Under the pieces are notes generated by a model. It was not told the DNA's origin and did no database searches. It worked only from the letters and a program-made list of their open reading frames with translations. Below, in pieces: positions 2,113-57,516 of a stretch of DNA of 64,000 nt (the first letter of the stretch is position 1; each line of letters opens with the position of its first letter). The position numbers and the translations under genes are program-made. The stretch spans positions 1,240,001-1,304,000 of the forward strand of contig OZ237743.1 in NCBI GenBank assembly GCA_965178125.1, in the 5' to 3' direction. Source of the stretch: Bilabrum cf. latius. Its lineage: Eukaryota.

Positions 2113-3153
2113 ATGGCTTCCGGACTGGTTATCATGCTGCCGTTCCTTGGAGGAGCTGCAGCATCTGCGTGCTACGATCCGGGGCAAGTATGTCCCCCAG
2201 GATACCCTTGCTGCGGCTCGGAAGATGGTATGTGCTATCCGTACACATGCAATGGCTACTGCTAGTCGACGCCTTGCTCCCCCGACGACGACCACCCAGC
2301 ACCTCCCTCGAACGACGACGGCGGGAGCGGGCCGGCACCGACCCCTGCCTGGTGCAACGAAGTAAAGGATTCGCTGCCGTCCTTTTGCAGCACCCAGGAC
2401 GACGACTGCCTCAGCATCAAGTGCTCTGGCCATATTCTCGGGGAGCAGCTGGATGCCACGGCGACGATCAACACGTGCCACAACCCCATCACCCTCGAAT
2501 TGTCCGGTGACCTCGGCAGCATGCACCTCGACCACACCTTTGATGTTGGGCACGCGAAGCTGCCTCTCGAGCTGGGTATATCAGTAGAGCTCGATCTCAC
2601 CGCATCGTCCGCGCAGGACTCGCAACTATCCATAGACCTGAAGCTGGACGCTCCTTTCGGGGTATCAAAGACTCTCTGGTCCGCGACTGGCACCAACCCA
2701 GTGTCCTGCCCAGGCGGCAACATCCCCATGTGGGCGTACTATGCCGGGGGTGGCGCTGCCCTCCTCCTGCTGCTATGCATGCTGTACTGCTGCTGCCGTT
2801 GCTGCTGCAGCTCGCCCGACAAGCCCCAGCAGCCAGCGACCGTCCAGTTTGTCCAGATGCCGGCCAACGGCAGCGTCCAGTATGGCGCACCCCTGATGGG
2901 ACCAGGGCAGCAAGGCGGACCCATGGTGCAGCAGGTGGTGCCCACTGGCACGCAACAGCAGTACATGCCGCCGCAGGCAAACCCCAGCGTGCCGTCCGGA
3001 CAGGTGCAGCAGATGAATCGATAGCAGCAGTGGCAGCAATTTCAGCAGTGGTAGTAGCAACAACAGTAGGCAGGTCGTGTGGCGAACGCCCCGCCTCCAC
3101 CTCCACTGCCAGCTGCCGCTGCTGGAGGCCCTCCATCGTCTTCCATCAACTGA
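2113..3153 (+). CDS. Single-pass membrane protein: signal peptide, Cys-rich ectodomain, TM followed by CCCRCCC, Gln/Pro-rich tail (TAG read as Gln)
   Basis: ATG 2113 MASGLVIMLPFLGGAAASA. One frame to TGA TGA at 3151 with TAG at 2263, 3022, 3052, 3055 and 3067; the last four lie in the tract R*QQWQQFQQW**QQQ*. Confidence 0.75.
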
Positions 3154-3429
3154 TGAATCCAGCAGACGCTATGCGATGCTACCTTAGTTAGCTCCTTGCA
3201 CGAGGGCAGGATGATGAAGGGCAGAAGATGCACCTCTGGCTCTGACTTGATTGAGAGCGCAGGATGACGAAGGGCAGAAGATGCCGCTCTGGCTCTGACT
3301 TGATTGAGAGCGCAGACTACTAAAGATCCCCAGCAAATGACCCTAGCAATCCATTGCCATGCCGGCACATGGCATCCCAAACCGGTGGGTAAGGCCGCCA
3401 CATGCAACGACCCCGAATCAAGTGCCGTG

Positions 3430-6400
3430 TCACGCTCCATGCCATGCATTCACCGCAAAGAGCCCTGCCTCTGCCTGCAGCCTCTCAGAGGCGCCCAGCC
3501 CCCACACCTTCGCCTCCTCCTGAGTGACCTCGTGCTTCGTGCTCGCATGCATCGTGATTTGTCCAAGCAGCTCCCGCAAGCGGTCCTTCGCATGCTCGCA
3601 CCCACCAGGCCCATCCACATCCATGGAACACGCGCCCACTGCAGCTGTGGCCCGATCCGCATTCATCCAGGGGTACTCTTCACACTGTCGTCCACGGCCC
3701 GTTTTCCTATCCCACGCATCTGTTGTCTCTTCCTTAACGCTCACCAACAACCTGCCCAGCAAACAATCAGACCTCGCCCGCACCGAACCCGACCTCGCCC
3801 CCGTCCCCGAGGCGGCTGCACCACGGCCCAGGGCGCGCAGGATCGTCGCCTCCCAGGCCAGCGGAACATCTGCGCGGCGCCACATTGCCCCGGCAGCCGC
3901 GGACAGCCGCGCACCGAGCTCTATTTTGGCGGCTGGTTGCTGCTTCAGCAGCGACACCGCCAGCCGGACCATGTGCGCGGGCGACCTAGCCGCTAGGGCG
4001 TCGGCTCCCACAGACAGGAGCAGCGACCGGGCCATGCGGCCACGGAGATGACGAGTGGGCAGCGTGACGAGCGGAACACCCGCCGCGATGGCGTCCGCGG
4101 CCGTCTTGGATCCCCCGAACGGGAAGGGGTGCACAAGCATGTCACAGGCCCGCAGGAGCTCGATGAACCTGTCCGAGTTGGGCTGCCGGGGCACCCAGAG
4201 GACACGACTGTCAGGCGGTGGCACACCCACCGTGGCATTGTTGTGTTCCATGGCCGTCTGCTGGTGCCGGTGCCGGTGCTGGTGCTGGTGCTGGTGCTGG
4301 TGCTGGTGATGGTGCTGTTGTTGTTCTCGAAGCACTCGCTGCAGCCGGCGGTGAGTTGCCCTGGTCCATGCCCTGTTGCGGCCGTGCACCAGCACCAGCC
4401 GAGCCTAGGGCACTGCTCCCAGTATGGCAGCCAGCACGTCGTCGAGCCAGGGGTTCAGCTTGAACAGGCTCTGCGGGCAGCCGACCAGCAGGCTATCTCG
4501 TGGCAAGCCCAGTCGGTCTCTTGCCTGGGCAGCTGTGGTTGGAGGCACATGGACGGGGTCGTACCATATGCCCTGGCCCTCCAGCCGCACCAGCTGCTCC
4601 GTGTACGCCTTCCAGCCGGCCTGCGGGGGCGAATTTCGTGCCGCGCTTGGAGGGCCTCTCCCATTGGTGGTGACAGCAACCGGGTCGACTTTAGCTGCTG
4701 ATCCATCGCGTGAATCCAGTCGCTAAAGCTGCTGACGGGCCGATAGACCAATCGATCCTACCCACTGCTTTATCTTGTCAAACAGGCTGCCTTCGATCCA
4801 AGGCGCAGCATCGCTGGCGTGTGATGCATAGGCTGCAGACGATTGCGCGACAGAGTCCGCGTGCTCCGCTGCACCCTTCCTATCGTCAACCATCGCCCCT
4901 GTGCTGTCGCTCTCCATGCGGTCCCTATCGTCAACCATTGCCCCTGTGCTGTCGCTCTCCATGCGGTCCCCCGACAGGAAGTAGTCGAGCGATCCGGCGT
5001 GTCCAGAAGTCGTGGGGTTGCCCCAGAACAGAGCCTGCGCGTATGCGAGGCGAAGAAACGACGTACAAAATGCCAGCGAGCCAGTCGTTGAGTCCGCGAA
5101 CACGAGAAAGTCCGGCCGCGCGTCCCGAATGGCCGCTGCGAGACCATGCACCCTGGTGCTAACCGGCGGGGTGGCGACATCGGCGGCAGCCGCAACCTCC
5201 GGGGAGAGCCTCCACTCGTCATCCTTCGCACCCGGCCGTACCACCGTCACGTGCATTGCACTGCGGTTCAGCCGTCGCATGATACCTTGCAGCAGCTGAC
5301 CATGGGCGTGGTTCCTCGTAAAATGCCTGGAGACGAAGGCAACCCGCGCTTTGCGCCAGCCCAGGGCAAGGGAAGCATCTGGTGCCCCTGCCAGTCGAGC
5401 CAGCAGGGCGGCTGCTCTGGTCAGCCTGCGCATGGGCGGCATGGTGTGATGATGTTGCTGGCATGCGGTGCCAGAATTTACGCACGCCACTGTGCTATTG
5501 CTAGTGGACCCTTCCTTGCCTTGATCCTGTATATACTGCTGTGGCAGCCACGGGGACAGCACCGAATGCAACCGGTCGAGCCGCAGCCGTGCGGCCAGCG
5601 GCACCTCGGACACGCCGTCTGAGGCATCCGCCTCGGCATCGCTACTTCCCGCCCCCCGTCCCCATAGACTGCCCGGCGCCATGCCCGCGCTCGCGGCCTG
5701 CATCAGCGACCGGTCCCCGAACCCGTGGTACGTCTGGTAGAAGGGAACAAACTCCAACCCGGAGCCGTAATCGGGCCCCAGTCGCGGCACGGGCAGCCGT
5801 CCGTCTGTCTGCATGTGCGCGAGGGCGGCAAATGCTCCGATCGATGCCTCACGTGCCCGCAGCAAGGACCGGCGGCTACTGGCCACCGGCGGCAGGGCGC
5901 GGGAGGCCGCTCGAGACAGGAGGGTCCAGCGGTCGGGTTCCGCTAGCGCCGCGGCGCCGCCGTGCACGGCCGCACGGGTCCTATCGCCAGGTGCCTGCCG
6001 CTGGGCCGCTCTGTCCCCAAGCACCGTATGCGCACTGGGGGACCTGCCCCCAGCAGATATCGCCACTTCATGCGCGACTGCTGCAGCCCTGGCACCGTGC
6101 CCACTTGCCTGCAGCAGGGCAGCATAGTTGGAGGCGCAACCCAGGCGCCCCGCAGGAGTCAACCCTCCATCCTCTGCTCCGACGGTTTGACCACCACCGG
6201 ATTGGCCACCACCGGATTGGCCACCACCGGATCCAGCGAGACCCAGGGCGTATTGCACGGCTGCCTCAGCTTTCCTGCCCTGCACGTGCAGCGCGGCTGC
6301 CGCCGTGCACGAGGCCCGCCGGCTGATAGCGGGGGACAAACAGCCTGCCATCAAAGCCTGGGCCGCGGCCGCCCGCAGGTCCAATCCACTGGTGGACTGG

Positions 6401-6485
6401 TCCGCCGCCAGCAGGAGCACCCTCGCGGCCCAGGCCCTGGCCCAATCGGGCACCAGCGGGAGCTACCCAGGGCCCGACCCATCGA

Positions 6486-6520
<35 letters not shown>

Positions 6521-8391
6521 ACTTGACCGGACCCAAAGCAACGGCACAGCCCGAACAGCGAGAGTGGGAGGTCCTGCTTCCCGCAGGTCCCCTTATTCCC
6601 TGCACCACCATGCATTGCACCCGTGCTATCGGCCTGCATCTCGATCACGCCGTCCTCGCCTAGCGCCCTGTCCCAAGCAGGTCCCTCCCCCGGGCATGCC
6701 CCTCTGGTCCTGAGGGACGCACCCACGGGGTCTTCTTCCTCTCGATCTTGCTCCTCCTCTTGTTCCCCGCCACTGTATGCCGCAGTGCCAGGCACCCAAG
6801 GAGGGAGGCCGAGGGGAACACCAGCGGCGGCGGATCGCAACGCCCCCGCAGCTGCCAGCACCGGCGACCACGCGTCCCCCGCAGCGTCCTTCCCCTCTTT
6901 GGCCATGCTGGCCCTCATCCTCGCGGCCATCTCGAGCTCCATCCCGCGCACGCACATCGAGGACCGCTCGATGGCTCTGTGGACATGCGGGCCCACCTCC
7001 TCCCCGTGGGACTCAAGGACGCCCAGCACGTCCAAAGCACCGCCGTGCGATGCACCCTGCCCGCCACTGCCCACTTCACCGGCAGCGGGCATCACGGTGT
7101 GCCCCATGGCCCCGTGCCTCGCCAGCAGCGCGGCCACGAGCACACGCCCGGGGCCCCTCGGCAGCAGCCTGTAGGCCGCGCTGAGCAGGCCAGAGGCAGA
7201 CCCGGCGGTGCTTCCTGGTGACAGCGATCCGGATAGAGATACATTGCCCTGGCCTCTGACATGATTTTCAACTTGTTCCCCGGTGGGTGGGTCGTGTGAT
7301 GAGTGCTCTAGGTTCCGCCTACGGATGGCGGCTGCTGTTTCCACGCTTCGACGCGCCTCTTTGGCCACCCTCTGGTGCCAACTCAGGGACCCATAGCCAC
7401 CCTCCTCCTCCTCCTCCTCCTCCTCCTCCGCCTCCTCTCCCACCCAGCTCTAGTCACCACCGTGAGCCGACCTGGATGGACCACCGCCACCCCTGGCACT
7501 ACGCCCGGCACCAGCACCTCCCACCGACGGCGACGGCCCATGCTCCCCGGCTCGCAGCAGCTCCAGCCGGCTTGAACCGAGGACGGCCCTGGCCATGCCC
7601 TGGCAGGCCCGGGTGGTTGCAACCGCGACCTCCAACCAGGCCTTCAGAGGCACTACCATCCTAGCCTAGGGGCGGCTGCCTGCATCCGTCTCCACGCCGA
7701 TGCCCGCATCACGGCTGGTACTACCGGCAGCGCGAACATCGATGTCGACAGCCCCGAGGGCGGCTGCCCCTCGCTGGCACGCCCACACGGGCATCGTCAC
7801 GGTGCGGCGGTGCCACCAGTGGCTTGGGCGCAGTTGGCGGTGCGCTTCGACAGATCGACGCAGCCATCCGTCCGCTGTGCCAAGCGTGCGAGCGTACTCG
7901 ACACCAGAGATACCAATGGATGCTAGTATTCTATCGGCCGCTTGCAGCCGCACCATTGCGGCGCCTGCAGCCATGGGAGCGCACAGCAGGCCGTCCAGCA
8001 CTCGGCCTTGCCGCTACTTCGTCTCGCACATCACGAGCTAGGTGCATGCACTGGCGCCTCCAAGAAGCAATCTTCGAACTTCATGAATCTTTGCCAATGT
8101 GTTTTGGTGGCTAGCGCCGTAAATTAGGGTCTCGACCGAGATCTGCGACGGACCAAGCCGCAAGGTAGCCGGAGGTGCTTGGCAGTGTGCAGCTCTTGTT
8201 GTTGCGATCTCCACGCAGTCTGCTGCATCAGACAGTCGGAGAAGATGCAGTGATGCATGTCCCACTGCGCGAACTGTGCTAAGTGCAGCTTCACTCATGG
8301 TGCCATCGGCCACCATTCTGGCGTTTACGACGAGGAGGACAAAGAGCGCAACGACAGACGCAGTCCGCAGACCAACGGTACACAAAGGCAT
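3430..8391 (-). CDS. GT41 family (OGT/SPINDLY/HMW1C-like) glycosyltransferase with N-terminal hydrophobic segment, about 1,650 aa (7 in-frame TAG)
   Basis: Seven same-frame ORF pieces joined only by TAG (8038, 8014, 7666, 7450, 6463, 4723, 4405). Motifs RVAFVSRHF..HAHG, FWGNPTTSG..LDYFLS, PQSLFKLNP, PFPFGGSKTAADAIAAGVPLVTL, GRMARSLL. Ends TGA. Confidence 0.8.
4880..4970. repeat. Coding tandem duplication, about 45 nt x2 (MESDSTGAMVDDR)
   Basis: cctatcgtcaaccat(c/t)gcccctgtgctgtcgctctccatgcggtc occurs twice. Confidence 0.85.
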
Positions 8392-8517
8392 GTTATGGCC
8401 CCATAAAATACAGAAGAAATGATGAGCTAAGCGGTTCCTGCCGCCCATAAATGCAGCATGCTTGTACTTCCGGTCTGAGCCAACATACCCACCGTGACGG
8501 TGATCCGATCCTGATCA

Positions 8518-9609
8518 TCACAGCTCGTCCCCGCCAGGTCCGGAGCCCTCGGAGAACTTGAAGCTGCCCGCCTGCCGACCCCGCGCGCTTGCGCTTGCCT
8601 TGCCCGCCCCCCCTTCGCCGCCGGCCGCCGCTGGCAGCCGCTTCCACTTGCACCTGTCCTTGTTCTTGCATCGCCCCATGGGCAGCGAAACCGAGTCCAG
8701 CTCCGCGCACGCGGTGCCGCAACCCGCCTGCGGAACCGATGGCACCACCGGGGTGCCCATCCACAGGCCCGCCATCCCGACCTGCCCCCTTCTCTTCCCC
8801 AGCTTTGGGTGCATGGGCGGGGCCCCCACCCTCTGCCCCGCATGCTGCCGGGCCTCGGCGCGGGCGGGCGCGTCGTACGCGTACGAATCGGCTCCGGATG
8901 CGGAGAAGACTCCCGAGGACCCGCCGCTCCACGCGCTTCCTAGCTTAAGCCCGCCGGCGATGGGCATCACGTCCCAGCGCAGCGACAGCGAGACGTTGGC
9001 GCCGCGGAGCTTGCTGCTGTCGGGGCCCAGCAGGAGCGGGTACTCGACCGGCTCCTCGTGCAGGCTCAGCACTGCGTCTTCCGGCTTGTCAATAATGCTA
9101 TCCCATACCGTGTGGCTTCCGTACGACTGCGATTTCACTGAAAAAGATGGAATAGAGCGCGGTGGGCAGTCGCGGGCGTCCAACGTGTCGAGAGCATCGA
9201 TCCAAGCATCGCACAGCTCACGCCGTCTTTGGTCTGGTAGTCGGCCACTACGAACAAAAATACTTGCTTAGTATTCCAATCAAATAGACCGCTCAGGTCT
9301 GCTTCCAAGTCAATGGAAAATTCAGCTCGCCGGACAGTCGTCCTAAAAAAGTAGTGCTACCAGTCATCTATGAGATCGACGCTGCTAACTTTGAGTGTGT
9401 CCACGGTCCACTTGTGCTATACAGTAAACGATCTGCGGACGCTGAAGATTGCGGGTGTGAGGGTAAGCAGTGGGCCCAGGTAGTACGCAGTGGCCCCCCA
9501 AGACTGTGTTGCGAGCTGCTCACGTTAGCCAAGATGCGACTGCAGCGCTGGTCAGCGCGCCCAACCCGTAGAAAAAAATGGCATTCAAGCGATTAAGCAG
9601 CGTGTGCAT
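8518..9609 (-). CDS. SPCS3: Signal peptidase complex subunit 3 (SPC22/23), 3 exons, with C-terminal extension ending GDEL
   Basis: Exons 9609-9524 (MHTLLNRLNAIFFYG), 9432-9222 (DLEADLSGLFDWNTKQVFLFVVADY; TAG at 9417 and 9357) and 9126-8518 (VWDSII, LRGANVSLSLRWDVMPIAG). Introns are GT-AG and in phase. Confidence 0.88.
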
Positions 9610-10325
9610 GTCAGACAATCTGCGCGGTCTTGTGATAGGGCGCAAACGTTAATTCGGATGGCGCCTGTATTTTTATCTTCTTCTTGAGTGTTCATGGTGG
9701 GACCGATAGAGCGGTGTATGGGCAGCGCAGAAGAGCATCGGGCAGGACGTACACTACGAGCGTAGTCTACGAGGGTATTGAGGGGGTCAAGTCCAGCGGG
9801 GACTGTATGGTCGGTTGGGGGACACTTGCAGTGAGCATAGTGGGGGGCGGGCCGGGGGAAGATCAGGTGGGGCGGATCAGGAGTGAGCGCTCTGGATGAT
9901 CGATGGGGTAATCTTGGCAGGTGAGGAGGCATCCCTGCACTGAGAAAAGTTAGCAGCGTTCGCACCGCTGCTGCCGCCGCCCTGCTGCTCGTTTTGGCCC
10001 AACCGTGCCTTCAAGTTGGCATTGGTAACAGGTGCGACTCGGACGCCGTTGATGTTGCCAGCTGCCTCTACGGCAAGGCTGGTCTACCCAAACCGCACTG
10101 GCCTGGCCTGGTGCCAGTGCCCCACAGTGCGGGCGCCGGCGCCTTGGGCGGTTACAACCGGTACATGCGAGCACTCATCATCAGCAGGCAGCCAGTGCCA
10201 CTGGCACTGGCAGTCGCGACCACCAACCCACCACATTGTGTCTATCAGGCGAGTAGCGAAATCGAGAAATTCGCGACAACTTGCAACAACCAGTATCTCT
10301 GCGAAGTATCTGATACGCGAGTAGG

Positions 10326-11609
10326 ATGCTGGGTCGGCTTGTGGTCGGTGCGGTTCTGTGTTTCGGTGTTGTGGTGCCAATTCTGGTCCATGCCCAGTCT
10401 GATGAATCATACGGCGATATTCACCGACAAGGGCATGCTGGCAACGGCATAGCTAGTTGTTGTGAATCATAGTGCGGCGACTCTGATCCATAGAGATAGT
10501 ACCCGATTAGTCGATCAAACAAGTGGGAGGAAATCTGCAAATCTGGCGAAAAACCCGACGACCTTGTAAAGCTTTGGGATACGCCGGGGCATCCATTCGT
10601 CTATGGTGACACGATGAACATAAAAGCGAAGCAATGGTACAGTCGAGACTGCTGCGTTTGTCCGCCGGGAAAAGAGGGACGTGTGATTATATTGATGGCG
10701 GACACCAGAGATCCTACCAAAGGATTCAAAGAGGGTGCGAAGCTAGGCCAAACACACTACCACACGAAAGCTGCGCTTGTCAACCAGATGTATGCCAAGC
10801 GGTACGGGTACGACTTCAGGTACGTGATCCCAGCAGTCTGGAGCTCGATGCGAGAGCACATCCGGAAGGCCGCCAACTTGACGGGCAGCTACATCGATTG
10901 CAAAAAGCACCCTGTGACTTACAAGTGGAAGCAGAACTCTGCAAGGGCCGGGGCATGGACGAAGCTCCCCGCGGTATGGCACTACACCTACAAGTACGAC
11001 TGGGTCGTCCACATCGATTCGGACAGTGTCTTCAGAAACCACAGCTGGTCGCTGCAGCGAAGCCTGTCTGCCATGCGAAATGAGCAGGACTTTTTGCTTA
11101 TTTCAGACATGGCATACGAGTTTCGTTTACCTTGTACGGGAATATTTGTCATGCGGGGAGGCGCCCGTGGGCGCGCAAGGTTGGAGACGTGGTGGAATGT
11201 TACAGACTATGCGCACATCAAGGGAATCTATGAGCAGCGGGGCATGCGCGTCCGCGGAATGGCGGACTTCGACTCGAAGGAGTACGATCCCGATTTCTCA
11301 AAGGCAGGTGTCAGGCTGGATGTCCCCCAATTCTACCAGTCTGGGCGCCGGTGGCCTGTGCCGGGGAATCACAGCTGGGTCACGCACATCGGTACAGGGG
11401 AGAGACACAATCGCGAGAAGGTTCTAAACCAGCTTCTGGGCGAGTTTGGGATCGACACGGACCAGAAGGCCGCTGAGGCAGTGAAGCCCCTCGCAGGCTC
11501 GGTGACCTGGCTCGACACGACAGAGGTCTCGATGCACATGGAGCACGTTCCCGGAGGAAAAGCCCATCATCAGAGCATGTTCGAGGGCAAGTTTGGGCCA
11601 GTATGCTGA
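10326..11609 (+). CDS. GT34-like (MNN10/GMA12-type) glycosyltransferase with N-terminal signal/anchor
   Basis: Motifs YAKRYGYDF, WTKLPAV, YDWVVHIDSD (DxD), CTGIFVMR, YEQ. Reading TAG at 10470, 10491 and 10497 as sense extends the ORF to ATG 10326 MLGRLVVGAVLCFGVVVPILVHA. Confidence 0.75.
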
Positions 11610-13753: not shown

Positions 13754-13972
13754 GGTAATCAGTCAACAATGCGGGAAATAGAAAAAGCCTCAAGAAACAA
13801 AACTGCGCTTGCTGTGCGGCTGGCCGGTCAGACAGCTGGTGGTTGCGGAACATGAAGGTTCTCGTGATGTCGCCGCGCATTTCATCCTTGTAACGTTATA
13901 GTATAAACAAAATCTGGATTACAGCCGCGGCAGCGCACCCAAATCCGGATCACCTCCTGAAAAGCAAGCAAC

Positions 13973-14488
13973 ATGGCCATGGCGCGCTCCTCCCGCAGCA
14001 TCATGTCCGCTGTACGATCTGTTGCCGCTTCTGGGTCCCGGCGCTGGTTGTCTGCAGCTGCCGCTGACGCCAAGAACGACGAGCTAGTGTTCACGCTTTC
14101 GGTGCCTAGCCGCTCTTTGGTTAACAATCGCACCGTCAAGCGAGTGACCGTGCCCGCCGCTGAGGGAGAGCTTGGTTTGGAAAAGGATGGCCCAGCCAGC
14201 CTTTTGGAGCTGCGCCCGGGCATCGTGGATGTGCTGAACGAGGATGACAGCAGCGATAAGTGGTTCATCCCCGGTGGCTTTGCCTTCTACAACCCCGACA
14301 ACACGCTGGCCGTGTCTACACCGGAGGGAGTGTCCGTAGATGAGATTGATGAGGACGCGATCAAGACTGAGCTGACCCAGTGGCAGGCGAAGCTTGCCTC
14401 TGCCGAGACGGGCTCCAAGGAGGAGGCCGAGGCGACGATCGTGGTGGACATGTACCGCGAGCTGCAGGCATCCATGGGCCGCCTGTGA
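13973..14488 (+). CDS. ATP16: Mitochondrial F1Fo ATP synthase subunit delta
   Basis: Arg/Ser/Ala-rich presequence (RRWLSAAA), VTVPAAEGELG, LRPGIVDV, WFIPGGFA and a C-terminal helical hairpin. Ends TGA. Confidence 0.9.
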   Translation: MAMARSSRSIMSAVRSVAASGSRRWLSAAAADAKNDELVFTLSVPSRSLVNNRTVKRVTVPAAEGELGLEKDGPASLLELRPGIVDVLNEDDSSDKWFIPGGFAFYNPDNTLAVSTPEGVSVDEIDEDAIKTELTQWQAKLASAETGSKEEAEATIVVDMYRELQASMGRL

Positions 14489-16823: not shown

Positions 16824-17014
16824 GTCCGGTACTCCCAGAATAGGACTGTTTTAAGGCTCATCCGTGAGCCCACGTGTATTTCCGGCTCCGAGCCAGGCCC
16901 GGACACGTGCACTCAAAATGTGTGGTTTGCGATCTTATTGCTTCATTCGTTAATCGAGCACACCACAAACACCCACCAACGAAACCTGTGTCATAGTTTC
17001 TGCCCAACCCTCCC

Positions 17015-18458: not shown

Positions 18459-18954
18459 TCAGAAGTCAAACGGAACAGAGGACAGCGTATTCAATTCAAA
18501 TATAACATACGGACGAGATGGTAATCCTTGCATGCCGCAACATGCGACCGCGAGAGGCCATCCAAAGCAGGATAGAGAAAGGATGCCCCCGCTGGAGCGC
18601 TCCGTGCCTCCAGAGAGGATCTCTCACGTCTGGCCAGCTGCAATGAGGTATGAACAACAGATCGAGAGACCCTGCTGACCTTTTGCATCTCGCTAGAGCT
18701 GCAAACTGGCCTATGAGGCAATATCATGCAGCAGACAAAATGCAGACGCAGCGGGTAGCGTGTACATTTAGATGCTTCTCGAGTCGTACGCTCTACACGT
18801 CTTGCAGCTGCAACTACGCTCAGTTTTCCTAAAAATTGCAAGTGCTAGTATACGTTGTATAGGTGCACGGCTGCCAGCTCTAGCTGATTTTCTTGGAAGG
18901 CCTTGATCGCGCATCAGAACACTAGGTCCGGCTGCTTTGACACTGTCCATTGGG

Positions 18955-21828: not shown

Positions 21829-21866
<38 letters not shown>

Positions 21867-28264: not shown

Positions 28265-28471
28265 GTGTAGTACCCGCGATGCGGCAGTATCAAATTTGCA
28301 CTAATGAGAGAAACCGTGGGGAAAAGTATCATCAAGTCGCCGTCATCATCACACTCGGCCAAAGACTCCGCCGGTCGATTGCCGCACTTTATTGGCTACA
28401 TCACCCTAGTTGCGGCAGGTGCGATACCTGAAACCTGTTTTGTTGGCGGTTTCACGCGAGTTTCCTCGAGC

Positions 28472-43094: not shown

Positions 43095-43178
43095 TGCCCC
43101 CATGGTGGGCGCCGTGCTCTACCGATTATTATGCACGTCCCATCTGGATGTCAATAAGCCGTTCTGGATGTTACATAA

Positions 43179-44794: not shown

Positions 44795-45082
44795 GGTACT
44801 CCGGCACAGTACGCAGATTCGACTTGCTCGACCGGTCTTGCAGTCTGTGACTTGGATGACGAGTGCGTGTTAACGTGCAGTTTAACAAATATATCCAGAA
44901 AATCCTCTTTGAGGTCGAATGGCAAGAACGTCCCGACTGATCGTAGTTTCCGCTCGTGCTTGCAGTTCGTACGGGCTGTAGTTGCCCGATCAGAGCGGTA
45001 GTTACCGATAGCATCGACGGAGTGACGGAACGAGAGACAATTTTCGAATTGCTGCAAAAAGGATCTCGCACCGAGTGCAATC

Positions 45083-48000: not shown

Positions 48001-49297
48001 CACGGGCATAAGCGCGCCGAAGATGCTGGCTGACGCGGCATGGTGGCAGCTGGCCCCCAAGGCGTTCAGCGGGTGCTAGACCCTCCCCCTCAGGATCGGT
48101 GACTGGGTTACGCTGCACCACGGGCACCCCTTGGCGGCGGGCGGGATCGCGGTGCAGGCGTGGGTGGGGCGCGTCCCTACTTCGCCCGGGGAGGCAGACT
48201 CGAGCAAGTGCTCCAGGATGACGCTGCTCAGCGGAGCCAGCATGTCGGGGCAGCTGCTCCCAGGGAACATCGGGATGCCCCGCCGGCTGCTCGCCCGACA
48301 GAGCGAGATGCCGGGCACCGGTGCCTTCCGGGACTTGACAGTGGCCACGGTGGGTGTGCTGCCCCCGCAGCGGTCGGCAGCCGTGGGGGGACGTCTCGTG
48401 TCGGGCGCGATGCCCCCTGCCGGACAGCGGACGCAGGCGGACCACAGGGGCGTGCGGGCGGGCGCGCTCATCACGCTGAACTCGGAACACCCGCTGTCCG
48501 CGGAGCAGGGGGGTATTGCCCGTGTGACGAGCGTGCAGGGGGTGCTGGTGGAGCTCCAATCGCTTGCCGATTGTGTGCTCGCGGGCAGCCCAGTTCCGTC
48601 CTCTAGCGAGCCCCAGACCCGGGCGCACCGCATGCTGACTAGGGCCGTGCGGCGGGTGCTGGCCCCGCCCGACTCCGTGCGGCTCACCCCTGCCATGCGC
48701 GCGAAGGGTGTGACGAGTGATATGCTGGCGGAGTTCCTCGAGGCGCAGGCCGCGGCCAGCGAGGTGTCGCTGACGAGCGGGAACGTCCGGTAGTTCATGA
48801 AGGTTCGCCCCGCCATGAGCAAGGGCGTGTCCATCGGAGACAGCAGCAACAGCAGCGCTGGCGGGCTTGGGCTGGGGTTCGGGGCTGTGACGGCGGGCAG
48901 TGGGTGGGGGTCGGCAGCAGGAATGCCGGCGCCCTCGGCGGGTGGCGGCACGAGCGGGTGGGGCTCGAGCGCAGGAGAGGTCACCGTGGTGATTCCGGCC
49001 AGTATGGCGGCGGATTACGGACCATCATCAGGCCATGACTCGGAAGGGATTACCATGGACGTGGAGATGGACCTCGACTCTCCCGGGATGGTGCAAGTGG
49101 GGGCCCATCTGTCGGCGGTTGGCGGCGCGGCGGAGTACCTCATGGAGTCCGCTATGCATTCCGGTCTGAACGGACTGGAGGTGGAAGAGGAAGACTCGGA
49201 CGTGTCGGAGGCGGAGCTGGAGGGGAACTACAGTGGCGACTCTGATAATGACGAGGAGATCGACGATGAGGACGGGGGCGGTGCCGATTGGATGTGA
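45083..49297 (+). CDS. N-terminal RanBP2/NZF zinc-finger protein with DPW/DPF/NPF motifs, about 1,400 aa (5 in-frame TAG)
   Basis: MWGCTACTYSN*DGATACEMCGTPK matches W-x-C-x2-C-x3-N-x6-C-x2-C. TAG at 45116, 45281, 47669, 48077 and 48791. Ends TGA. Confidence 0.78.
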
Positions 49298-49490
49298 GCT
49301 GGAATGGAATGCATCTCGTTTTGCTCTGGGAGACAGCATGACAAGCGCTCCGCATGACTGGGTGTATCTATAATAATGATTCTCAATATGCTTTCCCGGG
49401 GTGTTTGTCAGGTTCGGTGCTGTGCGCAACTAGATTCGGAGTGGCCAAAAGGCGCTGCTGGCAGTTGCACTTGGGTACACACTCTCTCCG

Positions 49491-50237
49491 ATGCGGATTC
49501 GTAGCCGCCCCGCAGCCGTGTTGGTTTACGATGGGGTTTGCAATATATGTAACTTTGGAGTACGCACAGCTTCGAGTCTTGATGCCGACGGGTCTATCTG
49601 GTACGTGGCGCTGCAGTCGAATCGGCTGAACGCCCTGTCTCGTTGCGTAGCATCGGATCCCGCGCGTTATGGCATCGGACACCAGCTTGCAGAGGCACTG
49701 TAGCCAGCTGCAGTCCACAAGCGGTTTGTGTTGTTGGAGGGTCAAGGCCTACATCACGCGATGCTGGCAGCCGAAGGAACGCAACAACTCCCCCAGCAAA
49801 GCACAGCATCTGGCCGCGGAGTGCCCGTCAAGCTCGGTAGGCTCAGCAGTATACCAAATGTAAAACACACGCATCGGTCGGCTCGCCGCCTCGTTGTTCG
49901 CTCCGGTGGGGATGCCGCCTTGCGCGTGGGCGAGCTGACCGGAGGCGTGGTTGGACTGGCTGCTTCCATTGCGAGGTCTGTGGCCCCAGCATCGCTCGTG
50001 GAGGCCACGTACGACTTTGTGGCCGCTAATCGATACGCTTGGTTTGGACGGACCGAGTCTTGCCAGATTCCACCGTCTTGGCTAGCGGATCGCATGTGGG
50101 ACATGCCGCGCCGAGAGGAGCCCACGCACCCGTGCGCTGCCACTGCCACCTTGAAGGGCACCAGCTCGCCGAGTGCGAGCAGCGGTGCAGGCGACTGGCC
50201 CACACCCTTGCATCGGGACGAGCAAGGCAGGCAGTGA
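49491..50237 (+). CDS. DCC family (DUF393/YuxK-like) thiol-disulfide oxidoreductase
   Basis: YDGVCNICN and VALQS lie before the TAG at 49701; SGGDAALRV and YDFVAANRYAWFGR..C lie after it, in the same frame. Ends TGA. Confidence 0.85.
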
Positions 50238-50430
50238 TAGTGTACCTCTGTGGTGGGCACCCGTGTGTAGGAGGTCTCGTGAAAGCACAGATGCACAACG
50301 TTTGATCATTATTGGGTAGTCTAGCAGCAACTCGCACAAGCGCCGCTGCGTATTGACAAGCACGATCACGAGCACGTCCGGGTAGCCGGCGCGACTCCAT
50401 CTCGCATGCCCACGTGTGCATCACAGTGCA

Positions 50431-53400
50431 TCACCCCCACGGCATGAGTATGGAACCCTTGCCCTTGCACTTGCCCCAGTCCCCCTTCGCGAGAGCGGCA
50501 AGCAGATCCGCCAGACCCTCCCCCTCCTCTTCCTCTGCCTTCTCCTCCTGCTTCCCTCCACCCTTCGCCTACCCAGCACTGCCACGGCCCACCCCATCCC
50601 CATCCCCATCCTCGCTATCTTCGTCCTCACTGCTCTTGCTCTCGCTCGCGCCCGCACGCACAACCCCAGTCCCCCCAGTCCCCCCAGTCGCCCCAGTCGC
50701 CCCCAGCCCCTCCTTGATGTCCCGCAGGGGCCGCAATCGGGCCCTCCTCGCTGCCATGTCTGCGCTTCGCCTGGCCTTCTGTATGGCCCTCTGCTGGGCC
50801 ATGCGCTGGCCCCGGGTCATGTCAGACAGCGTGTTCCCCGAGCCCGGCCGCCGGGAAGCGAACTGCCGCATGTGCCCTGCGCCAGTGCCTCGCCTGACGC
50901 GCCGACTGGCAGGCCCCTCCCCCTCCCCGTGTTCATCCTCGTCTCCATCCTCTTGGCCGGCCGCACGCCGCTGCCTCAGCCTGGCCCTGCGCGCCGCCTG
51001 GCTGCCCCCAGACCGCATGCCGGCCAGCGGGTTAGCGACCATGGACCCGGCCTAGCCCGAGGACTGGCCGTGGTGCGCCCCGCTCCCGCGACCACTACCC
51101 TCGTCGTCTTCTTCCTCTTCCTCTTCCTCTTCCTCTTCCTCCTCCTCCTCCTCCTCCTCTTCCACACTCGGGATTGCATCAAGAGGCCCCGCACGGATGG
51201 CAGCCCACACCGCATCCCCGACAGCAGGTACCGCTGCCCATGCTCCGGCATACGGACCCAGCCTCAGCCTAAATCGCTGCCGTGGCTGCAGAGACATAGC
51301 TTCCTCCGCCTCGGCCCCGGCCTCGGAACCCCCTACGTGTGCAGCCCCATCCCCATCCCCATCCCCATCCCCATCCCCATCCCCATCCCCATCCTCAGGC
51401 TACTCCACCTCGACCCACGCGCCCTGCACCAGGTAGGACAGCCTGTCCGAGTATCCACCCGCACTCACCATGCCCCCACCAGACTCGATGTCCCCCGCGC
51501 CCGCGCTCGCCAAGCCATCGCGGCCCGCGGGCCCGTGCACGCGGATCGCAGCCGAGCTCACATCCACAGTCCCTCGGTGCGCGCTGGTGCTGCTGGTGCT
51601 GGTGCTGCTGGCCCCTGCCCCTGACGCGGCCCCCTGCACGGCCCCTGCGGCAGCCAGGGCCTCCCTCGCCCCCGGGGAGACCGTGGAGAGGACCAGCCGC
51701 TGGGAGGCAGGAGGCAGCAGGTGCTGCGCTGGTGTGCCCAGAAGGAGCGCGCCCGCCTCTGCGCCCGTCAGCTTCAGGGTCAGGTGGGCCGGTGGCGACG
51801 GGCGGGCATGGCCAGAGCCAGGGCTAGCAGCAGCAGCAGCAGCACCTGCCGCTCGACCCTGTTGTTCCCTGGCCTTCAGCTCCGCCCGCACGATCAGCGG
51901 AGGCCTCACCTGAATCTCGATCCCGGGCAACCCTGCGATGGGCATGGGCCGCGCGTCGATCTCCGCCACCTGCTCCAGGCCAGGAGGGGAAGGCGGCCCG
52001 CTGCTCCTCTCCTCCACAGACAGCAGCACTGTTCCCTAGCACCCCCTGGAGTCAACCCCGGGGGGCATCTGGGGGCCACGGCTCCCCCCGCTGGCCTCCC
52101 CGTCGCCCTCATCGTCCCCTTCGTCACCCGAGTCCACCGTGGCGCGGGGCCTTCGGGCGCGCACCTTGTTCCTCTGCTGCATTGCACTGCGCTGCCTCTC
52201 CGCGTCCTCCTCCCGGGTGGTCAGGCGGGCCCTCAGCTCCATGGGTCGGGCCGCGGCGGGTAGCGACTGAGGACCCACCGGGCTCGCGGGCTGGGCCCCT
52301 GTCCCTGCCCCTGCCCCTGCCCCTGCCCCTGGTTTGGCTGCCGTGCTGCCACCGCCACCGCCACCGCCGCCGCAGCCCGGGGCAGCATCTTCGGCAGAAG
52401 CGGCAGCAGCACTGGCAGAAGCCCTGTCGGTGGTGCTAGAGGATGCCAGCTGCCTGGCCTGGTGAGCCGCAGATGCAGCGGACTGCAGTGCGCCGCCTGC
52501 CTCGGGAAGGAGTACAACGCCCTGCCCGATCCAGTCCTTCTTCGTCTTGCTCTTGGGAGCACCCCCTCCGTTCCCGCCGCGGGTGCCCAGCGAGCCATCC
52601 GGCTGCCGCCTGCGCCGCGTGGCTCCAGACCCGGCGGGCGGAGTGATGGGCCGTCTGTCCATCTGGCCCTGCCCATACCCCCCTCCGATCGGGGCATACC
52701 CCCCCGCACCCCCTCCCATCGCGCCCATGAGCTCATCTTCCTCCTCGTCGCCCAGCGCGCGGGTGCCGCCCCCGTGGTCTCCATCGTCCCCGCCCTGCCC
52801 CGCCCTCTGCTGGAAGCGAGCAAACGCAGCCGCCTGCTCCCGCTGCAGCCGATCGAACTCGTCGGGGTTCATGCCCGCGCCCCCTCCAGCGATCGCCGCC
52901 GCCTCCTTGGCAGACTGAGCCTCCTCGAACCGACGCACCGCCTCCACCGGGTCCAGCTCCTCCGGTTGCCCCGGGCCGGCCCCGCCACGGCCGAACCCAC
53001 CCCCACCTCCGCCGCTGCCCCCACCCATGTACACGCCGCTGCCCCCGCCCGTGTGTGCGCCGCTTCGGCCATGCCTCGGCAATGGCGCCGTCCCGCCCAC
53101 CACCTCCTGCGCCAGCTCCAGACACGCGGCCGGCTCCAGGCTCTCCGGGATCGGGACGGGGTGTTGCACCCCCTCCCTATCAGCATCGTGCTTCGCCTCG
53201 ATTCTCAGGACCCTCGCTTCGTCCGCTCCGTCCAGGGACTCTGCCACCGCCGCCAGCTCGTCGGTCCCCTCGAGTCCATCCATCGTCTCGGCCAGGTGCA
53301 CCGCACCCTGCCTCCACTCGTCACACCTGAGCATGGCACGCAGGGCAGCCAGCTGCGAGGCCGCCGTGCCGTGCCCCGGGAACCCCTCCCCGTTGAGCCT

Positions 53401-54525
53401 GGGGGCGTGCTGCAGGCCCTTGGGCGTGTCCCATGCGGCCATGGCCTAGTAGGTATGCCTCGGCTGCAGGGACTGGCTGTTGCTCTGCAGCCGAACCTGG
53501 CAGGCAGCCACCAGGCTGGCAAAGCAGCGCCGCTGCAGGAGGTGTCCCCTGGTCTTGGGCCGCGTGCTCGCCCGCTAGAGCTGCTTCGAGGGGCGGCCCT
53601 GGTACACGCCCTGCGCGGTGTGACGAGTGCCACCGGAGTCCGGTGCGGGGGCAGGAGAAGAGGGGGAAGAGGAGGCGGCGCCGGCTGCATCTCCAAGCCC
53701 GGAGCCAGCCGTCCCTTGCCTGTGGGCCGGGGCTTGCCCTTGAGCTTCGGGGTCTGCAACCTCGCCCGGCCCATCGCCCGCTCCTGCTCCCGCTCCCGCT
53801 TCTGCTCCTGCACCACTATGCCCCCTCTCCGATCCGGAGCCGGAACCCATTGTGCCCTGGGAGCGGACGGGATGTGGCGCCCCGGCGGCCCCCACCGGAT
53901 TTGTGCCGTCGTGCGGTGCATCCACGAGGTCGGTGTGTCCCCCCACGACCCCAAGCATGGGCGAGCTGCCCCCCCCATCCCCCCCAGAGGAGGATACGCC
54001 CCCTACAGTGGAGGCCAGGGCACTGGAGTGCGAACCGCCGGCCAGAACGTCCGCGTGTGCTCCCTGTGAATCCATCTATTCGAGCACATAGGCAGCGGCG
54101 GCGTTGGTGTCTCCTGGGTGGAGACGGAGAGCACGCTGGGCAATTGCGAATGAGGCGCCGAGCGACATCAGCTGGTCGAGCGGATCGTCGGGCTAAGAGC
54201 CATCAGCTCCGAGACCAGTGGCAAGATCAGGTCGCAGGGGTCCCCCGCGCCCGGGGTTCCCAACAGACCCTCCAAGAGACGGCGGGCGGACGCCTTCTGG
54301 GGCTGGGGCGGCTGCAGAGCGCGATCCAGCGCCAGCCCCTAAATCACCGGCCACTCGACCGCCCCCAATCTCTTCTGAATTTATAGCTGCCCCAAGCTTT
54401 GTGGAGCTGGGTGGGTTTGAAGGCGACGATCGACGACCCCGAAGCTGTTCTCGCATCTAGCGAGAGTGCTCATCCTCCTCATCACTTGGCATCCCTCGAT
54501 CATCGCGATCTGAGGGGCTCGCCAT
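50431..54525 (-). CDS. UBA-domain-containing low-complexity protein, about 1,360 aa (9 in-frame TAG)
   Basis: DPLDQLMSLGASFAIAQRALRLHPGDTNAAAAYVLE (UBA-like, 54190-54079) is bracketed by TAG codons. Same-frame ORFs are chained to TGA 50431. Confidence 0.7.
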
Positions 54526-54891
54526 TACTTGTAGTGTAGATCTTATTCACAGCGACCAGCAGTGATTGCGAGAATACGCAGTTTAGGTGGCGGGTGGCGG
54601 ATCTGCGCAACAGCCTTGTACAGACGATCTTGTTTCCAACACGGCCCTGAGACGGCGCTGCCAGAGAGTTTTGTCAACTGAGAGATACTGTGACGAATAC
54701 CGTCTGCTGGAAACAGCCGCAGATATAGTGTGCGAACAAGCGAGCTGCGCAGACCTACGCGGCATTGCTCACACTCATTTGAAGCTCTGCCGAGCCGAGC
54801 GGAGCTTGACTGGTGGAGCCTTTGTCGACGAAAGACAGGCGCCCTGTATCCCAGTGCAACAATCCGTGGTTGGTATCTATATACAATGTAT

Positions 54892-57516
54892 TCATGTGAC
54901 CTGTGATCCAGTCAGATCCACCAGGCCCGGGATCCTCGCCATTGCCACCCGAGGATCGCCACCTGCCGCAGAGAGTAGCCCTGGTCTGCCAGCGTTGTAT
55001 TCGCCCTCTTCCTCATCTTCCTCCTCGGGCAGCTCATCGTGCGATGGCCTCCACCGAGGCTTCTCCCCAGCCCCCTCCCCCACCGCCCCCCTCTCCCACC
55101 CGCCTCCTCTGCAGCCTCCTTGCCCCCCGCCAGAGACAGGCCGCTCCCTTCTCAGCCTTCCCGCGCGCGGCTGGTGCAGCGCCCCAATCAACGGGGACAT
55201 GCCCCCACTGCCACTGCCACTGCCATGCACGCTGCATGCACCCACCCTGCCCCCCGCCACGGCCCCCGAGCCCTGCACCCCCACCCCCACGCTGTCCCAC
55301 CGCCCCGTATCGCCCTGCTCCTCCTTCTCCCCCAACTAAGAGCTGCCCTGCCACTGGGAGCTTCTGCTGAACTGCACGTCGATGCAGGAGGATTGTAGCT
55401 CCGAGTCACGGGATGCGTGACAGCCCAGTTGTCTCACTGCGCGGGTGGCCGGATCGCATCCAGATCCACTCGCCAGCCCCCCGGCCTAGCCCGCCGGTCC
55501 GATGGCAGCCAGCTGCGTTGGGGGGCCAGGATGGGCCTGGGTCTCTTTGTGTGCGTGGCTGCCTGATCCACTGCCCATTCTGTTTACCTTGCCCCGGTCC
55601 CGATCTTTGTCACAGGCACTGGCTGAGGCTGAGGTTGAGGCTGAGGCATCGCGCTGTGGCCCGAATGCGCTGCCGTGCTGCCCCCATCGCGTGTGCTGCG
55701 TTTCTACATGCTACTTGTCGGCCGCAGCGCGATCACCAGCACAAACCCTGCCACTTGTTCCACTCACACCATGCAGTCGCGAGGACTGTATCCGTGCGAC
55801 TTTCACTTCAAACACAGCGGGATATCCTTCGCTTGTCTCGTCGGCCCCGCGCTCCTCACAGCCCTCGTTCTCATCCTGTACTTCTTTCTCTTGCTCTTTC
55901 ACTTGCTCTTCCTCTTCCCGCCCTTCTAGTCCTTGCTTTAGCTCTTGCCCTTCCTGGTCCCCACCCTCTTCCAGCCCGCTGTCCTCATCGTACAGCGTAT
56001 CGCATGACCTCCCGAGGGGGCCGCTGATGCAAGGCATGATCTGGTCAGAGGCGTACTTGGATCGGTTGCTGAATCGCCTGTCGATCATCGCATCGCCTTG
56101 CACTGCACCATGAGTAGGACTGTTGCCTCTGTGGTGCAGACCACGGTGCACATCCCCGTCGGTCCCATGCAGCTCGGCCTCTCCCTGCAGAGTCATGTCC
56201 ACCTCTGCCTCGCTGCCCGGGGGCAGGCTGGGCAGAGTGTGCGGGCTGTGTCGGCTGTCGGACAGGCCGTGCGTGGCCGGGCCCAGGACTGCCCTGAGCC
56301 TCCTGCTGTTGGCCGCATGCACGGCCAATGGGTCCGGCGCGGGCTCGCCTGACCCAACCCCCCCTGCGGGACCGACCCGTTCTAGCCTGCCGTGCTCTGC
56401 ACCCCCATTCTCAAGCAGGATGGGCATGGGGGCGAGCGTCCCCAGCCTCAGGCTGCCCCTCAGGCTGTCTCCGGCCGGCGTGTCGCCCATGTGCGAGCGG
56501 GACCCGTCATAGGACCGAGTTCCCGTGTGATGAGTGCCAGAGTCGCTGAACGAGTGCGCCGAGTCCACCGACCCGATCGGGCGGTCCAGCGGTGCCACGA
56601 ACCGGCCCCAGACACGCCGCTGCACGCCGGCCTCCAGGGCAGAGGGCATCTCCTGGTACAGGCGGTGAGTGCCTGTTGTCGTGCAGGTGCCGGTGGCCGT
56701 GGCCGTGGCTGTCGATCTGCCCCTCGGGGTTCCGGTATTGGTTTGCTCAGTCTCTGGCCGCTCCCTGTGGCCTCGTTGCGTGCGGAACTTTGCAATCGCC
56801 ACGTCTGGCAGTGGCTGTGATGGGGATGGACTGGGACTGCCAGCGGGCGACGCGCGGCTGCCGTTTCCCGTATTGCGCTGCAAGTGCGGCATATGGCGGG
56901 TGCTGTTGCATCCTGCCTCCTTGCAATTGGGATCTTGTTGCTACTGCTACTGCTGTCTACCCACCAGGAGCCCAGGCATCCCAGCATCGATACGATGCTG
57001 GTGCGTGTCTCTGTCCTGGTGCTGCCTGCGTTGCCTTGTCATGCGGCTCATGGGCCGCATGTCCTTCTTCGCCCCGGGCTGGTACCACGCGCTGCTGGTG
57101 GACTGCAGCGAGGTCTGCTTGCGGATGGCAGAGTCCTCGGGCTGAGGCTGCAGCACGGGGAGAACAGCGCAGCCGCCGCTGCTGCCACGCTGGGCGAGGC
57201 TGGCAGACTTCCTTCGCGGGTCTGGAGCAAGCTATCGGAATTGCCCGGCCGTTGTTACGTGGCTTGGGGTGCTTGGTGCACCGCTGGCAGGCTGCACCTC
57301 AGGCTGTCTGCCACCTTCCGATGGTGCGGCGCTTGGCGTGTTGCAGCTCGAGGCTGCAGGCGGGATGCCGGTGTATCTGGCTCCCCTTGACAGCTGTCTG
57401 CCTGTCGATACTGTCCTAATTGTACCAAATTGGGAATGTGTTTTCCTGAGAGACTTCAGGCCGGGCTCCTGGACCATCGACTGTTCCTGGCAACCTGCCG
57501 TGGTATCGTCCCGCAT
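54892..57516 (-). CDS. Hypothetical disordered protein, member 1 of a tandem family sharing the YQEMPS...RVWGRFVAPLDRPIGSVDSAHSFS motif (6 in-frame TAG)
   Basis: Same-frame pieces joined by TAG at 57232, 56947, 56941, 55711, 55486 and 55336. Includes CAG CAG TAG CAG TAG CAA CAA. Ends TGA. Confidence 0.65.

Follow-up and report, generated by a model that had tools for sequence, protein, structure and literature searches.

The 64-kb stretch of nuclear contig analysed here (contig OZ237743.1, positions 1,240,001 to 1,304,000; hereafter the window, to which all results are confined unless stated otherwise) has a G+C content of 63.7 % (approximately 64 %; 0.57 to 0.68 in 4-kb stretches) and carries genes of eukaryotic nuclear type on both strands, many of which run through one or more in-frame TAG triplets. 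The meaning of this codon is the subject of the present analysis. We annotated 19 open reading frames (ORFs), picked by family match, length and the G+C pattern at third codon positions and amounting to 16,759 codons. A survey of Pfam families and ORFs gave the genes of known family, among them two AMP-binding proteins (one of which is described below) and a lipocalin, and several very long low-complexity proteins.

Several of the TAG-containing genes could be assigned to families, and in the first six described here the homology carries on in frame past TAG codons. The aspartate-semialdehyde dehydrogenase gene (asd; 43179–44794, minus strand, exons 44794–44660 and 44549–43179) ends in TGA, returned Pfam matches of 103.5 and 85.5 bits and contains one TAG (43833–43835, codon 254); PDB alignments with solved fungal and archaeal enzymes cover residues 27–252 and 276–424, on either side of this codon. 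The two-pore-channel (TPC)-like gene (38127–43094, plus strand, TGA end) contains five in-frame TAGs and encodes two Ion_trans domains (Pfam Ion_trans, 169.1 bits, two stretches), which flank TAG codons 605 and 608; its top PDB matches are TPC structures, and the alignment with human TPC2 spans TAG codon 263. Seven in-frame TAGs are present in the 1694-codon gene for a GT41-type glycosyltransferase (3430–8514, minus strand, TGA end; Pfam Glyco_transf_41, 36.2 bits), the one at codon 1370 being spanned by PDB GT41 alignments. The AMP-binding-like gene (17015–18346, minus strand, TGA end; Pfam AMP-binding, 61.3 bits) has a single TAG, codon 353, within its Pfam stretch (306–412). In the gene for a RanBP2/NZF-type zinc finger protein (hereafter NZF; 45026–49297, plus strand, five in-frame TAGs, TGA end), the Pfam Zn_ribbon_RanBP stretch (20–45) spans TAG codon 31, at a score of 26.3 bits, which is below the cut-off of 27. 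SPCS3 (SPC22; 8518–9524, minus strand) is divided into two exons by a predicted 95-nt intron (9127–9221) and carries two TAGs in exon 1 (9417–9419 and 9357–9359); Pfam SPC22 matches of 50.5 and 44.6 bits lie on two ORFs in different frames, and the stretch 35–101 spans both TAGs. At 2257 codons, the longest gene (28115–34888, plus strand, 13 in-frame TAGs, TGA end) encodes a kinase-like protein whose C-terminus forms a hydrophobic tail; its family signal is weak (Pfam APH 28.2 bits, above cut-off; Pkinase 24.1 bits, below the cut-off of 31.7). An earlier reading of the window from its letters and ORFs, without database searches (the sequence-only reading), had named asd, a two-pore channel, GT41, DCC and SPCS3, all of which we recovered; the kinase that it named stands on the weak signal just given, and its PLAC8 protein found no counterpart, as no Pfam family was returned on either strand between 1794 and 3153.

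Read with the standard code, the window is poor in long genes, the longest stop-to-stop ORFs measuring 987, 795 and 684 codons. With TAG as a sense codon, the longest ORFs are of 2257, 2153, 1694, 1655, 1423 and 1371 codons, and six ORFs reach at least 1000 amino acids. Treating TAA as sense left the top ten ORFs unchanged, and treating TGA as sense gave a best ORF of only 1248 codons, though TGA is the commonest stop triplet in the window. Altogether, 69 in-frame TAGs are distributed over 13 of the 19 ORFs (4.1 per 1000 codons vs 6.1 per 1000 elsewhere), to which are added the two in SPCS3 exon 1. The sequence-only reading had described chains of same-frame ORFs joined by TAG on both strands, and this description was borne out, as read-through of TAG alone yields gene-sized ORFs; its hand count of about 75 TAGs in about 16 genes was close. 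Four of its chains (1794–3041, 26178–27698 and 49383–50420 on the minus strand and 36958–38049 on the plus strand) were nevertheless judged to be antisense shadows because of their G+C pattern at the first, second and third codon positions (GC1/2/3) and the presence of a better ORF on the opposite strand. Its statement that no gene needs an internal TAA, TGA or frameshift, and that genes end mostly in TGA or otherwise in TAA, holds for all 19 ORFs: there are 17 TGA terminators, two TAA terminators (14712 and 58361) and no TAG terminator, and these are the only occurrences of TAA and TGA in frame (elsewhere 3.0 (2.99) and 11.6 per 1000 triplets, respectively). The six ORFs that lack TAG all end in TGA or TAA.

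The surroundings of the coding-frame TAGs differ from those of the other 681 TAG triplets in the window. The stretch free of TAA and TGA around a coding-frame TAG has a median length of 1423 codons, vs 104 for the others, and the distance to the next downstream TAA or TGA has a median of 682 codons, vs 42. Beyond its last TAG, each gene continues for 28 to 668 codons without a TAA or TGA, and this part is often protein-like, one example being the hydrophobic tail of the kinase-like gene. A corresponding behaviour was not seen for TAA. If sense TAA followed the ratio of CAA to CAG, approximately 18 would be predicted (68 TAG × 138/525), and the number of internal TAAs observed was 0 in 16,301 codons. 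When TAA and TAG were both read as sense, the sole large extension was from 2257 to 2697 codons, and this lies antisense to a gene on the minus strand (26992–28104). Internal TAA is absent and TAA read-through merges no gene pieces; the code of this window is therefore not the common one in which both UAA and UAG (UAR) encode glutamine. The data support the claim that within the window TAA and TGA are not sense codons and remain stops, all 17 TGAs being terminators.

The sequence also occurs in public runs filed under several organisms and studies, none of the listed ones being recorded as RNA. To see the TAGs in other samples, the portion from 28115 to 48114 was compared with contigs, rather than raw reads, of four public runs from four studies (X1, X5, X6 and X7). 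X1 and X7 yielded contigs of even depth that run collinearly with the window and retain positions 44550–44659, whereas those of X5 and X6 have uneven depth, end at gene borders and contain a joint that skips this 110-nt piece. The skipped piece is the spliceosomal intron of asd (44550–44659, minus strand): it begins with GTAAG and ends with TGCAG on the gene strand, a pyrimidine run precedes the TGCAG 3′ end and the exons on both sides are in phase 0. Since the skipped GT..AG piece is a spliced intron, the X5 and X6 contigs are best read as transcript-derived. A single X5 contig carries both the spliced asd junction and the asd TAG. Twelve TAGs of four family-supported genes lie inside X5 pieces without a single differing letter; X5 contigs with zero differences include the kinase-like TAGs at 33470, 34112, 34520 and 34571, and the TPC-like TAGs at 38373, 38913 and 41946 are also found in X5. 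Among the contigs of all four runs, no difference was seen at any TAG from 28115 to 48114. The predicted SPCS3 intron, recognised by its GTGAGC..GCAG ends and by the Pfam matches in different frames, is 95 nt long; neither this length nor the 110 nt of the asd intron is a multiple of three; if the 69 TAGs lay in introns that preserve the frame, the opposite would be required. The sequence-only reading had proposed checking whether the TAGs are spliced out or edited in mRNA, and in the intron-less X5 contigs they are unchanged. Contigs alone being considered, the retention of UAG in mature mRNA, neither spliced nor edited, is supported, and the alignments across TAG codons support the reading that the codon is translated.

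As to the amino acid, glutamine is favoured because two close relatives were weighed most heavily. An exhaustive protein search with NZF returned 10 proteins at E≤0.001, all fragments of 101–360 aa. Two orthologues from close relatives cover a TAG site each. P0263 (81 % identical) has glutamine at TAG codon 1018 (window 48077–48079), and P0273 (87 % identical, found through the 90 % cluster of P0264) has glutamine at TAG codon 86 (window 45281–45283), so that the close relatives show glutamine at both of the sites covered (2/2). Over the 662 positions of these two alignments, 17 of 21 glutamines of the window face glutamine, compared with none of 31 glutamates and none of 29 aspartates; conversely, the 22 glutamines of the relatives face Q (17), TAG (2), T (1), K (1) and R (1). 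The sequence-only claim that UAG encodes glutamine is supported by this result. Two gene boundaries in the relatives are also of note: P0264 starts at a methionine 11 codons past codon 86, and P0263 ends exactly before window TAG codon 1256. Both would be expected from a standard-code gene caller if the relatives have stops at these positions, which would imply that TAG alternates with CAA or CAG among close relatives.

Two tests on the window itself also bear on the amino acid. In a tract test, 5 of 68 TAGs (7.4 %) were found to have glutamine-rich flanks, compared with 3.3 % of Q, 0.3 % of E and 0.1 % of D codons, while 2 of 68 (2.9 %) had glutamate-rich flanks, compared with 6.6 % of glutamate and 0.9 % of glutamine codons. 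The glutamine-rich cases are found in the tail of the gene at 1948–3153 and in a poly-Q run (56943–56949). A regional test asked how well the codon density of each amino acid accounts for the spread of TAG, gene by gene and in bins of 400, 200, 100 and 50 codons, with held-out samples for calibration. The difference in log-likelihood between glutamine and glutamate was +6.8, +7.2, +22.2, +6.6 and +19.4, each value being above the 95th percentile of true-glutamate samples, and glutamine came out on top of all 20 amino acids at each of the three scales. The calibrated shares, which give the fraction of true samples of an amino acid that reach the value observed, reject glutamate (0.01, 0.00, 0.00), whereas leucine (0.07, 0.01, 0.04) fails at two of three scales and serine (0.05, 0.05, 0.01) is borderline; lysine, tyrosine and most others are also rejected. 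An uncalibrated binning of TAG counts against amino-acid density gave no gain over a uniform model, and a search for repeats within the window whose copies differ in having TAG or some other codon returned only acidic low-complexity matches.

If TAG is glutamine, it makes up approximately 9 % of glutamine codons (68 TAG, 525 CAG, 138 CAA), and its distribution is uneven. Five conserved small genes (SRP54, the ATP synthase subunit, ITPase, an acyl-CoA-synthetase fragment and the lipocalin) contain no TAG and 59 CAG or CAA in 1542 codons, while the other ORFs contain 67 TAG and 624 CAG or CAA (Fisher p=0.007). As the conserved small genes hold none, TAG is tolerated mainly at unconstrained sites, namely variable loops, inserts and low-complexity tracts. 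Such a placement would arise if the codon had re-entered genes at sites free of constraint. We suppose that UAG, but not UAA, would be read by a glutamine-charged tRNA whose CUA anticodon differs by a single base from that of tRNA-Gln(CUG), and that the eRF1 of this organism would have a weakened recognition of UAG; the inability of a CUA-anticodon tRNA to read UAA is a mechanism argued in PMC11687900 and PMC5304391. The low share of TAG and its exclusion from the most conserved genes resemble codon capture that is still at an early stage or of low efficiency.

Taking these lines together, the window is very probably nuclear DNA of a eukaryote that is GC-rich and poor in introns and that uses UAG as an ordinary sense codon, most likely for glutamine, and UGA and UAA as terminators; for the assignment of glutamine taken by itself our confidence is likewise high. 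Several observations weigh against this conclusion and shape the alternatives. The close relatives cover only two sites, both in one gene, and at three TAG sites more distant NZF orthologues differ from glutamine: P0265 (59 % identical) has D at codon 86, amid a block that is well conserved locally, P0266 (46 %) has S at codon 882 and P0271 (45 %) has E at codon 31. The distant-homologue columns of asd, TPC, AMP-binding, the PDB set of GT41 and SPCS3 were uninformative, the TAGs being in inserts, variable loops or unaligned parts. A naive-Bayes classifier applied to the flanks (three residues on each side) placed glutamate first and glutamine second by 4.7 log units, or 8.4 with neighbouring TAGs filled in, and the TAG set fell outside the range of 60 held-out true-glutamine samples. 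The regional test leaves aspartate and asparagine unrejected. The tRNA scan of the window returned no tRNA genes, and the eRF1 gene lies outside the window. For X5 and X6 the record gives no library type, X5 being labelled ‘RNA? (probably DNA)’, and their reading as transcripts rests on the spliced junction and uneven depth. Finally, the ORFs were built with TAG read through, so that a gene truly terminated by TAG would appear extended, the only counter to which is the long stretches free of TAA and TGA after the last TAG. In favour of glutamine rather than glutamate or aspartate, by contrast, are the long GT41 homologues (16 found): 39 residues of theirs fall in six TAG columns (S 7, Q 6, G 5, H 4, R 4, D 1, E 0), and at codon 159 they are H, Q, Q and R. 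The sequence-only reading had named TAG-site columns without enrichment for one amino acid as a refutation; in this small sample the correspondence to glutamine is supported, both close-relative sites showing glutamine, more distant orthologues D, S and E at three sites, and glutamine making up 6 of 39 GT41 residues.

TAG terminators hidden by the read-through would allow UAG to be dual, that is, glutamine inside genes and a context-dependent terminator of some, as in some ciliates and trypanosomatids. Ambiguous codes do exist (10.1101/2022.04.12.488043 and PMC12153298), and 19 ORFs are a small sample in which to look for one; however, none of them needs a TAG terminator, those without TAG end in TGA or TAA, and the open frame past the last TAG and the downstream distances given above speak against it, so we consider a dual role unlikely. 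A sense codon for another amino acid, for which glutamate is the strongest candidate and aspartate and asparagine are possible, would accord with the flank classifier, with three TAGs that lie within an acidic stretch encoded by the kinase-like gene (codons 1300, 1333 and 1341), with the D and E of P0265 and P0271 and with the regional result for D and N. Against it, close relatives have glutamine at both sites and never align glutamine to a glutamate or aspartate of the window, the regional test rejects glutamate at each of three scales, TAG occurs in glutamine-rich flanks 24 times as often per site as E and approximately 70 times as often as D, and the GT41 columns contain no E and one D, all of which make this reading rather improbable. 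That the code is the common UAR=Gln one, with sense TAA made scarce by a GC-rich genome, draws on the fact that UAA and UAG are usually reassigned together (PMC5304391 and PMC11687900) and on the rarity of TAA across the window outside coding frames; yet the shortfall from approximately 18 expected internal TAAs to none, the unchanged ten longest ORFs, the single antisense extension and the two ORFs that terminate at TAA leave it very little room. We attach next to no weight to a standard code in which the TAGs are in-frame introns, pseudogenes, RNA editing sites, programmed read-through or assembly errors. Real introns are present in asd and, by prediction, in SPCS3, and one TAG of the DCC ORF may sit in an in-frame insert or intron; on the other side, all 69 TAGs lie in frames without TAA or TGA, the known introns are not multiples of three, the contig from which the asd intron has been spliced keeps the asd TAG, no other letters occur at TAG sites in four runs of four studies and programmed read-through is far less dense than the TAGs seen, which number 4.1 per 1000 codons and are spread over 13 of the 19 ORFs.

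Reassignment of UAG to glutamine with UAA and UGA kept as stops has few parallels among known nuclear codes. According to PMC11687900 and PMC5304391, reassignments of UAG alone are known from the rhizarian exLh (Leu), Iotanema spirale (Gln) and the green alga Scotinosphaera (Ser), as well as from Protocruzia tuzeti and phyllopharyngean ciliates (Gln or Leu), and one ciliate reads UAA as Lys and UAG as Glu. The UAR=Gln code is used by many ciliates, some ulvophytes, hexamitin diplomonads, Streblomastix and the aphelid Amoeboaphelidium protococcarum. The window resembles I. spirale, in which UAG is sense and inferred to be Gln, UAA is kept as a stop and a tRNA-Gln with a CUA anticodon is predicted (PMC5304391); however, I. 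spirale is an anaerobic metamonad with UAA as its dominant stop (same source), whereas the window has a mitochondrial ATP synthase subunit, 64 % G+C, TGA at the end of 17 of 19 ORFs and single genes with stramenopile affinities. It also resembles P. tuzeti and two phyllopharyngean lineages, in which UAG alone became Gln, independently and recently, and for which suppressor CUA tRNAs have been proposed as agents; these ciliates have 27.4–53.6 % G+C and prefer UAA as stop (PMC11687900), unlike the 64 % G+C, the 64-kb multigene contig and the dominant TGA found here. With exLh, Scotinosphaera and the UAA=Lys/UAG=Glu ciliate it shares a difference in meaning between UAG and UAA, and it departs from them in the amino acid. 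With the UAR=Gln code (NCBI table 6 type) it shares the change from stop to Gln, except that TAA is not sense in the window. In the literature covered, from which supplements and subscription journals were mostly excluded, no account of a reassigned UAG came up for any stramenopile or any GC-rich non-ciliate; PMC6733595 concerns plastid UGA only. A known kind of code, UAG-only reassignment, in a new lineage is thus the probable description.

Few nuclear codes give UAG and UAA different meanings, and such codes serve as natural experiments on the escape of a stop codon from its release factor. If our reading is true, a lineage outside the ciliates and metamonads is added to them, and the setting is unusual for its very high G+C, its dominant UGA stop and its low share of TAG among glutamine codons. 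Standard gene callers shatter such genes, and gene catalogues and contamination screens consequently misread the organism. The orthologues of NZF in public protein collections exist as pieces of 92–360 aa only (P0263–P0281); five of them belong to a more distant relative and share 4,672 bp as the length listed for their longest contig, which suggests that they lie on one contig on which the gene has been broken into many ORFs. Genes of the whole group of relatives appear to be shattered in this way by standard-code gene callers.

Hints to the source organism came from single-gene results of quick searches, the window containing no rRNA. SRP54 (11978–13762, minus strand; no TAG, TGA end; Pfam SRP54, 255.7 bits) has one 99 % match, from the same organism, and its next best match is 57 % identical; the SRP54 tree (65 rows) returned a 24-row clade without a named member (Shimodaira–Hasegawa-like approximate likelihood ratio test, SH-aLRT, 99). 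In the asd tree, the only named member of an 18-row clade (SH-aLRT 100) is the bicosoecid Cafeteria roenbergensis, and of the 16 long GT41 homologues the three that are named are all stramenopiles (Phaeothamnion, Scytosiphon). The asd and GT41 results offer a lead towards a probable stramenopile rather than a placement. The mitochondrial ATP synthase delta subunit rules out a fornicate such as Iotanema. Amoeboaphelidium was ruled out by its G+C content (approximately 40 % vs 64 %; PMC10608142) and by the lack of any of its proteins among the 120 SRP54 or 120 asd matches listed. Nor does SRP54 group with the one ciliate in its tree, and nothing in the window suggests a ciliate. The sequence-only proposal of an independent, undescribed reassignment is plausible, with the lineage only loosely placed. 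The fuller proposition is that UAG alone became Gln independently in a lineage without a record of such a change (probably a heterotrophic stramenopile or, failing that, some mitochondriate non-ciliate of 64 % G+C), that several uncultured relatives may share it and that it is the first with UGA as main terminator, against the AT-pressure logic of codon capture; for us this is evenly balanced.

A metagenome scan with the SRP54 alignment returned 80 loci that are 42–56 % identical to the window protein, none of them close, and none of the 25 of these SRP54 loci of at least 6 kb showed a TAG-specific gain in ORF length like that of the window. In-frame stops inside the aligned region of SRP54 were seen at L014, L015 and L027 (TAA and TAG), at L061 (TAA only) and also at L012 and L062, and those of L063 and L078 were mostly TAG (7 and 6, respectively). 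The loci with in-frame stops in SRP54, at 42–47 % identity to the window protein, belong to other organisms with variant codes.

Turning to the remaining genes, the membrane protein with a Q/P-rich tail (1948–3153, plus strand; five in-frame TAGs, TGA end; GC1/2/3 0.61/0.53/0.69) was annotated from composition and length only and matches no Pfam family; four of its five TAGs lie in the Q-rich tail (3022–3024, 3052–3057 and 3067–3069). An ORF of 431 codons (10314–11609, plus strand, TGA end) with three TAGs near its N-terminus is also without a Pfam family. The mitochondrial ATP synthase delta/epsilon-type subunit (13961–14488, plus strand; Pfam ATP-synt_DE_N, 33.7 bits) and the Ham1-family ITPase (37219–38079, minus strand; Pfam Ham1p_like, 169.9 bits) contain no TAG and end in TGA. 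A protein with a C-terminal PRKCSH/MRH-like domain (14712–16850, minus strand, TAA end) has four TAGs (codons 65, 79, 340 and 492), all upstream of its sole recognisable domain (Pfam PRKCSH_1, 27.9 bits, residues 655–698). Two long low-complexity proteins complete this group: one, with 2153 codons and a high content of P, K, S and A (18907–25368, plus strand; eight in-frame TAGs, TGA end), was annotated from length only, and one of 1371 codons (50431–54546, minus strand; nine in-frame TAGs, TGA end) has no Pfam family and, on our own reading of its sequence, may resemble a UBA domain.

The DCC1-like thiol-disulfide oxidoreductase (49380–50237, plus strand; Pfam DCC1-like, 57.2 bits, two stretches) carries two TAGs of uncertain status: one precedes the first methionine, and the other lies within approximately 85 in-frame codons between the two Pfam matches (49638–49890), which could be an insert or an in-frame intron. 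Inspection of this sequence for intron ends revealed none that were clear. The AMP-binding-like protein (17015–18346) has as its top solved-structure match 7tgh_T2 (E=6e-4), a 333-residue acyl-CoA-synthetase-like chain from ciliate respiratory-complex entries, which hints at a possible mitochondrial accessory role. In asd, exon 1 contributes a 45-residue N-terminal extension that resembles a targeting peptide, and two inserts are missing from all 17 of the closest homologues aligned, both being retained in the spliced X5 contig. At 43542, one X6 contig has a 30-nt in-frame insertion relative to the window, a length variant from another sample.

Three tandem paralogues occupy the minus strand from 54892 to 62406. 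The first (54892–57561, TGA end) has six in-frame TAGs, two of which are in the poly-Q run (56943 and 56949), and the second and third (58361–59701, TAA end; 60352–62406, TGA end) have none. The three share an invariant block of approximately 38 residues, are barely alignable elsewhere and have no Pfam family; they offered no alignment at TAG sites, and a search of prokaryote genome contigs with the motif of the block matched 36 stretches, none of which was confirmed.

Finally, two features lie between the kinase-like and ITPase genes. The region 35182–36618, of which an X5 contig covers 35239–36480, has a lone long ORF without a coding-like G+C pattern (0.60/0.58/0.55) and without a Pfam family, and may represent a transcript that is either non-coding or strongly diverged. 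An element of approximately 150 bp (36554–36703) reaches a depth of approximately 1500 in X1 contigs, compared with 6–9 in the adjoining bins. Because many contigs diverge on both sides, the element is a high-copy dispersed repeat. A scan of the window returned no Rfam families, and the element had no Rfam match even at E≤1. Within it, 79 nt are skipped by an X5 contig.

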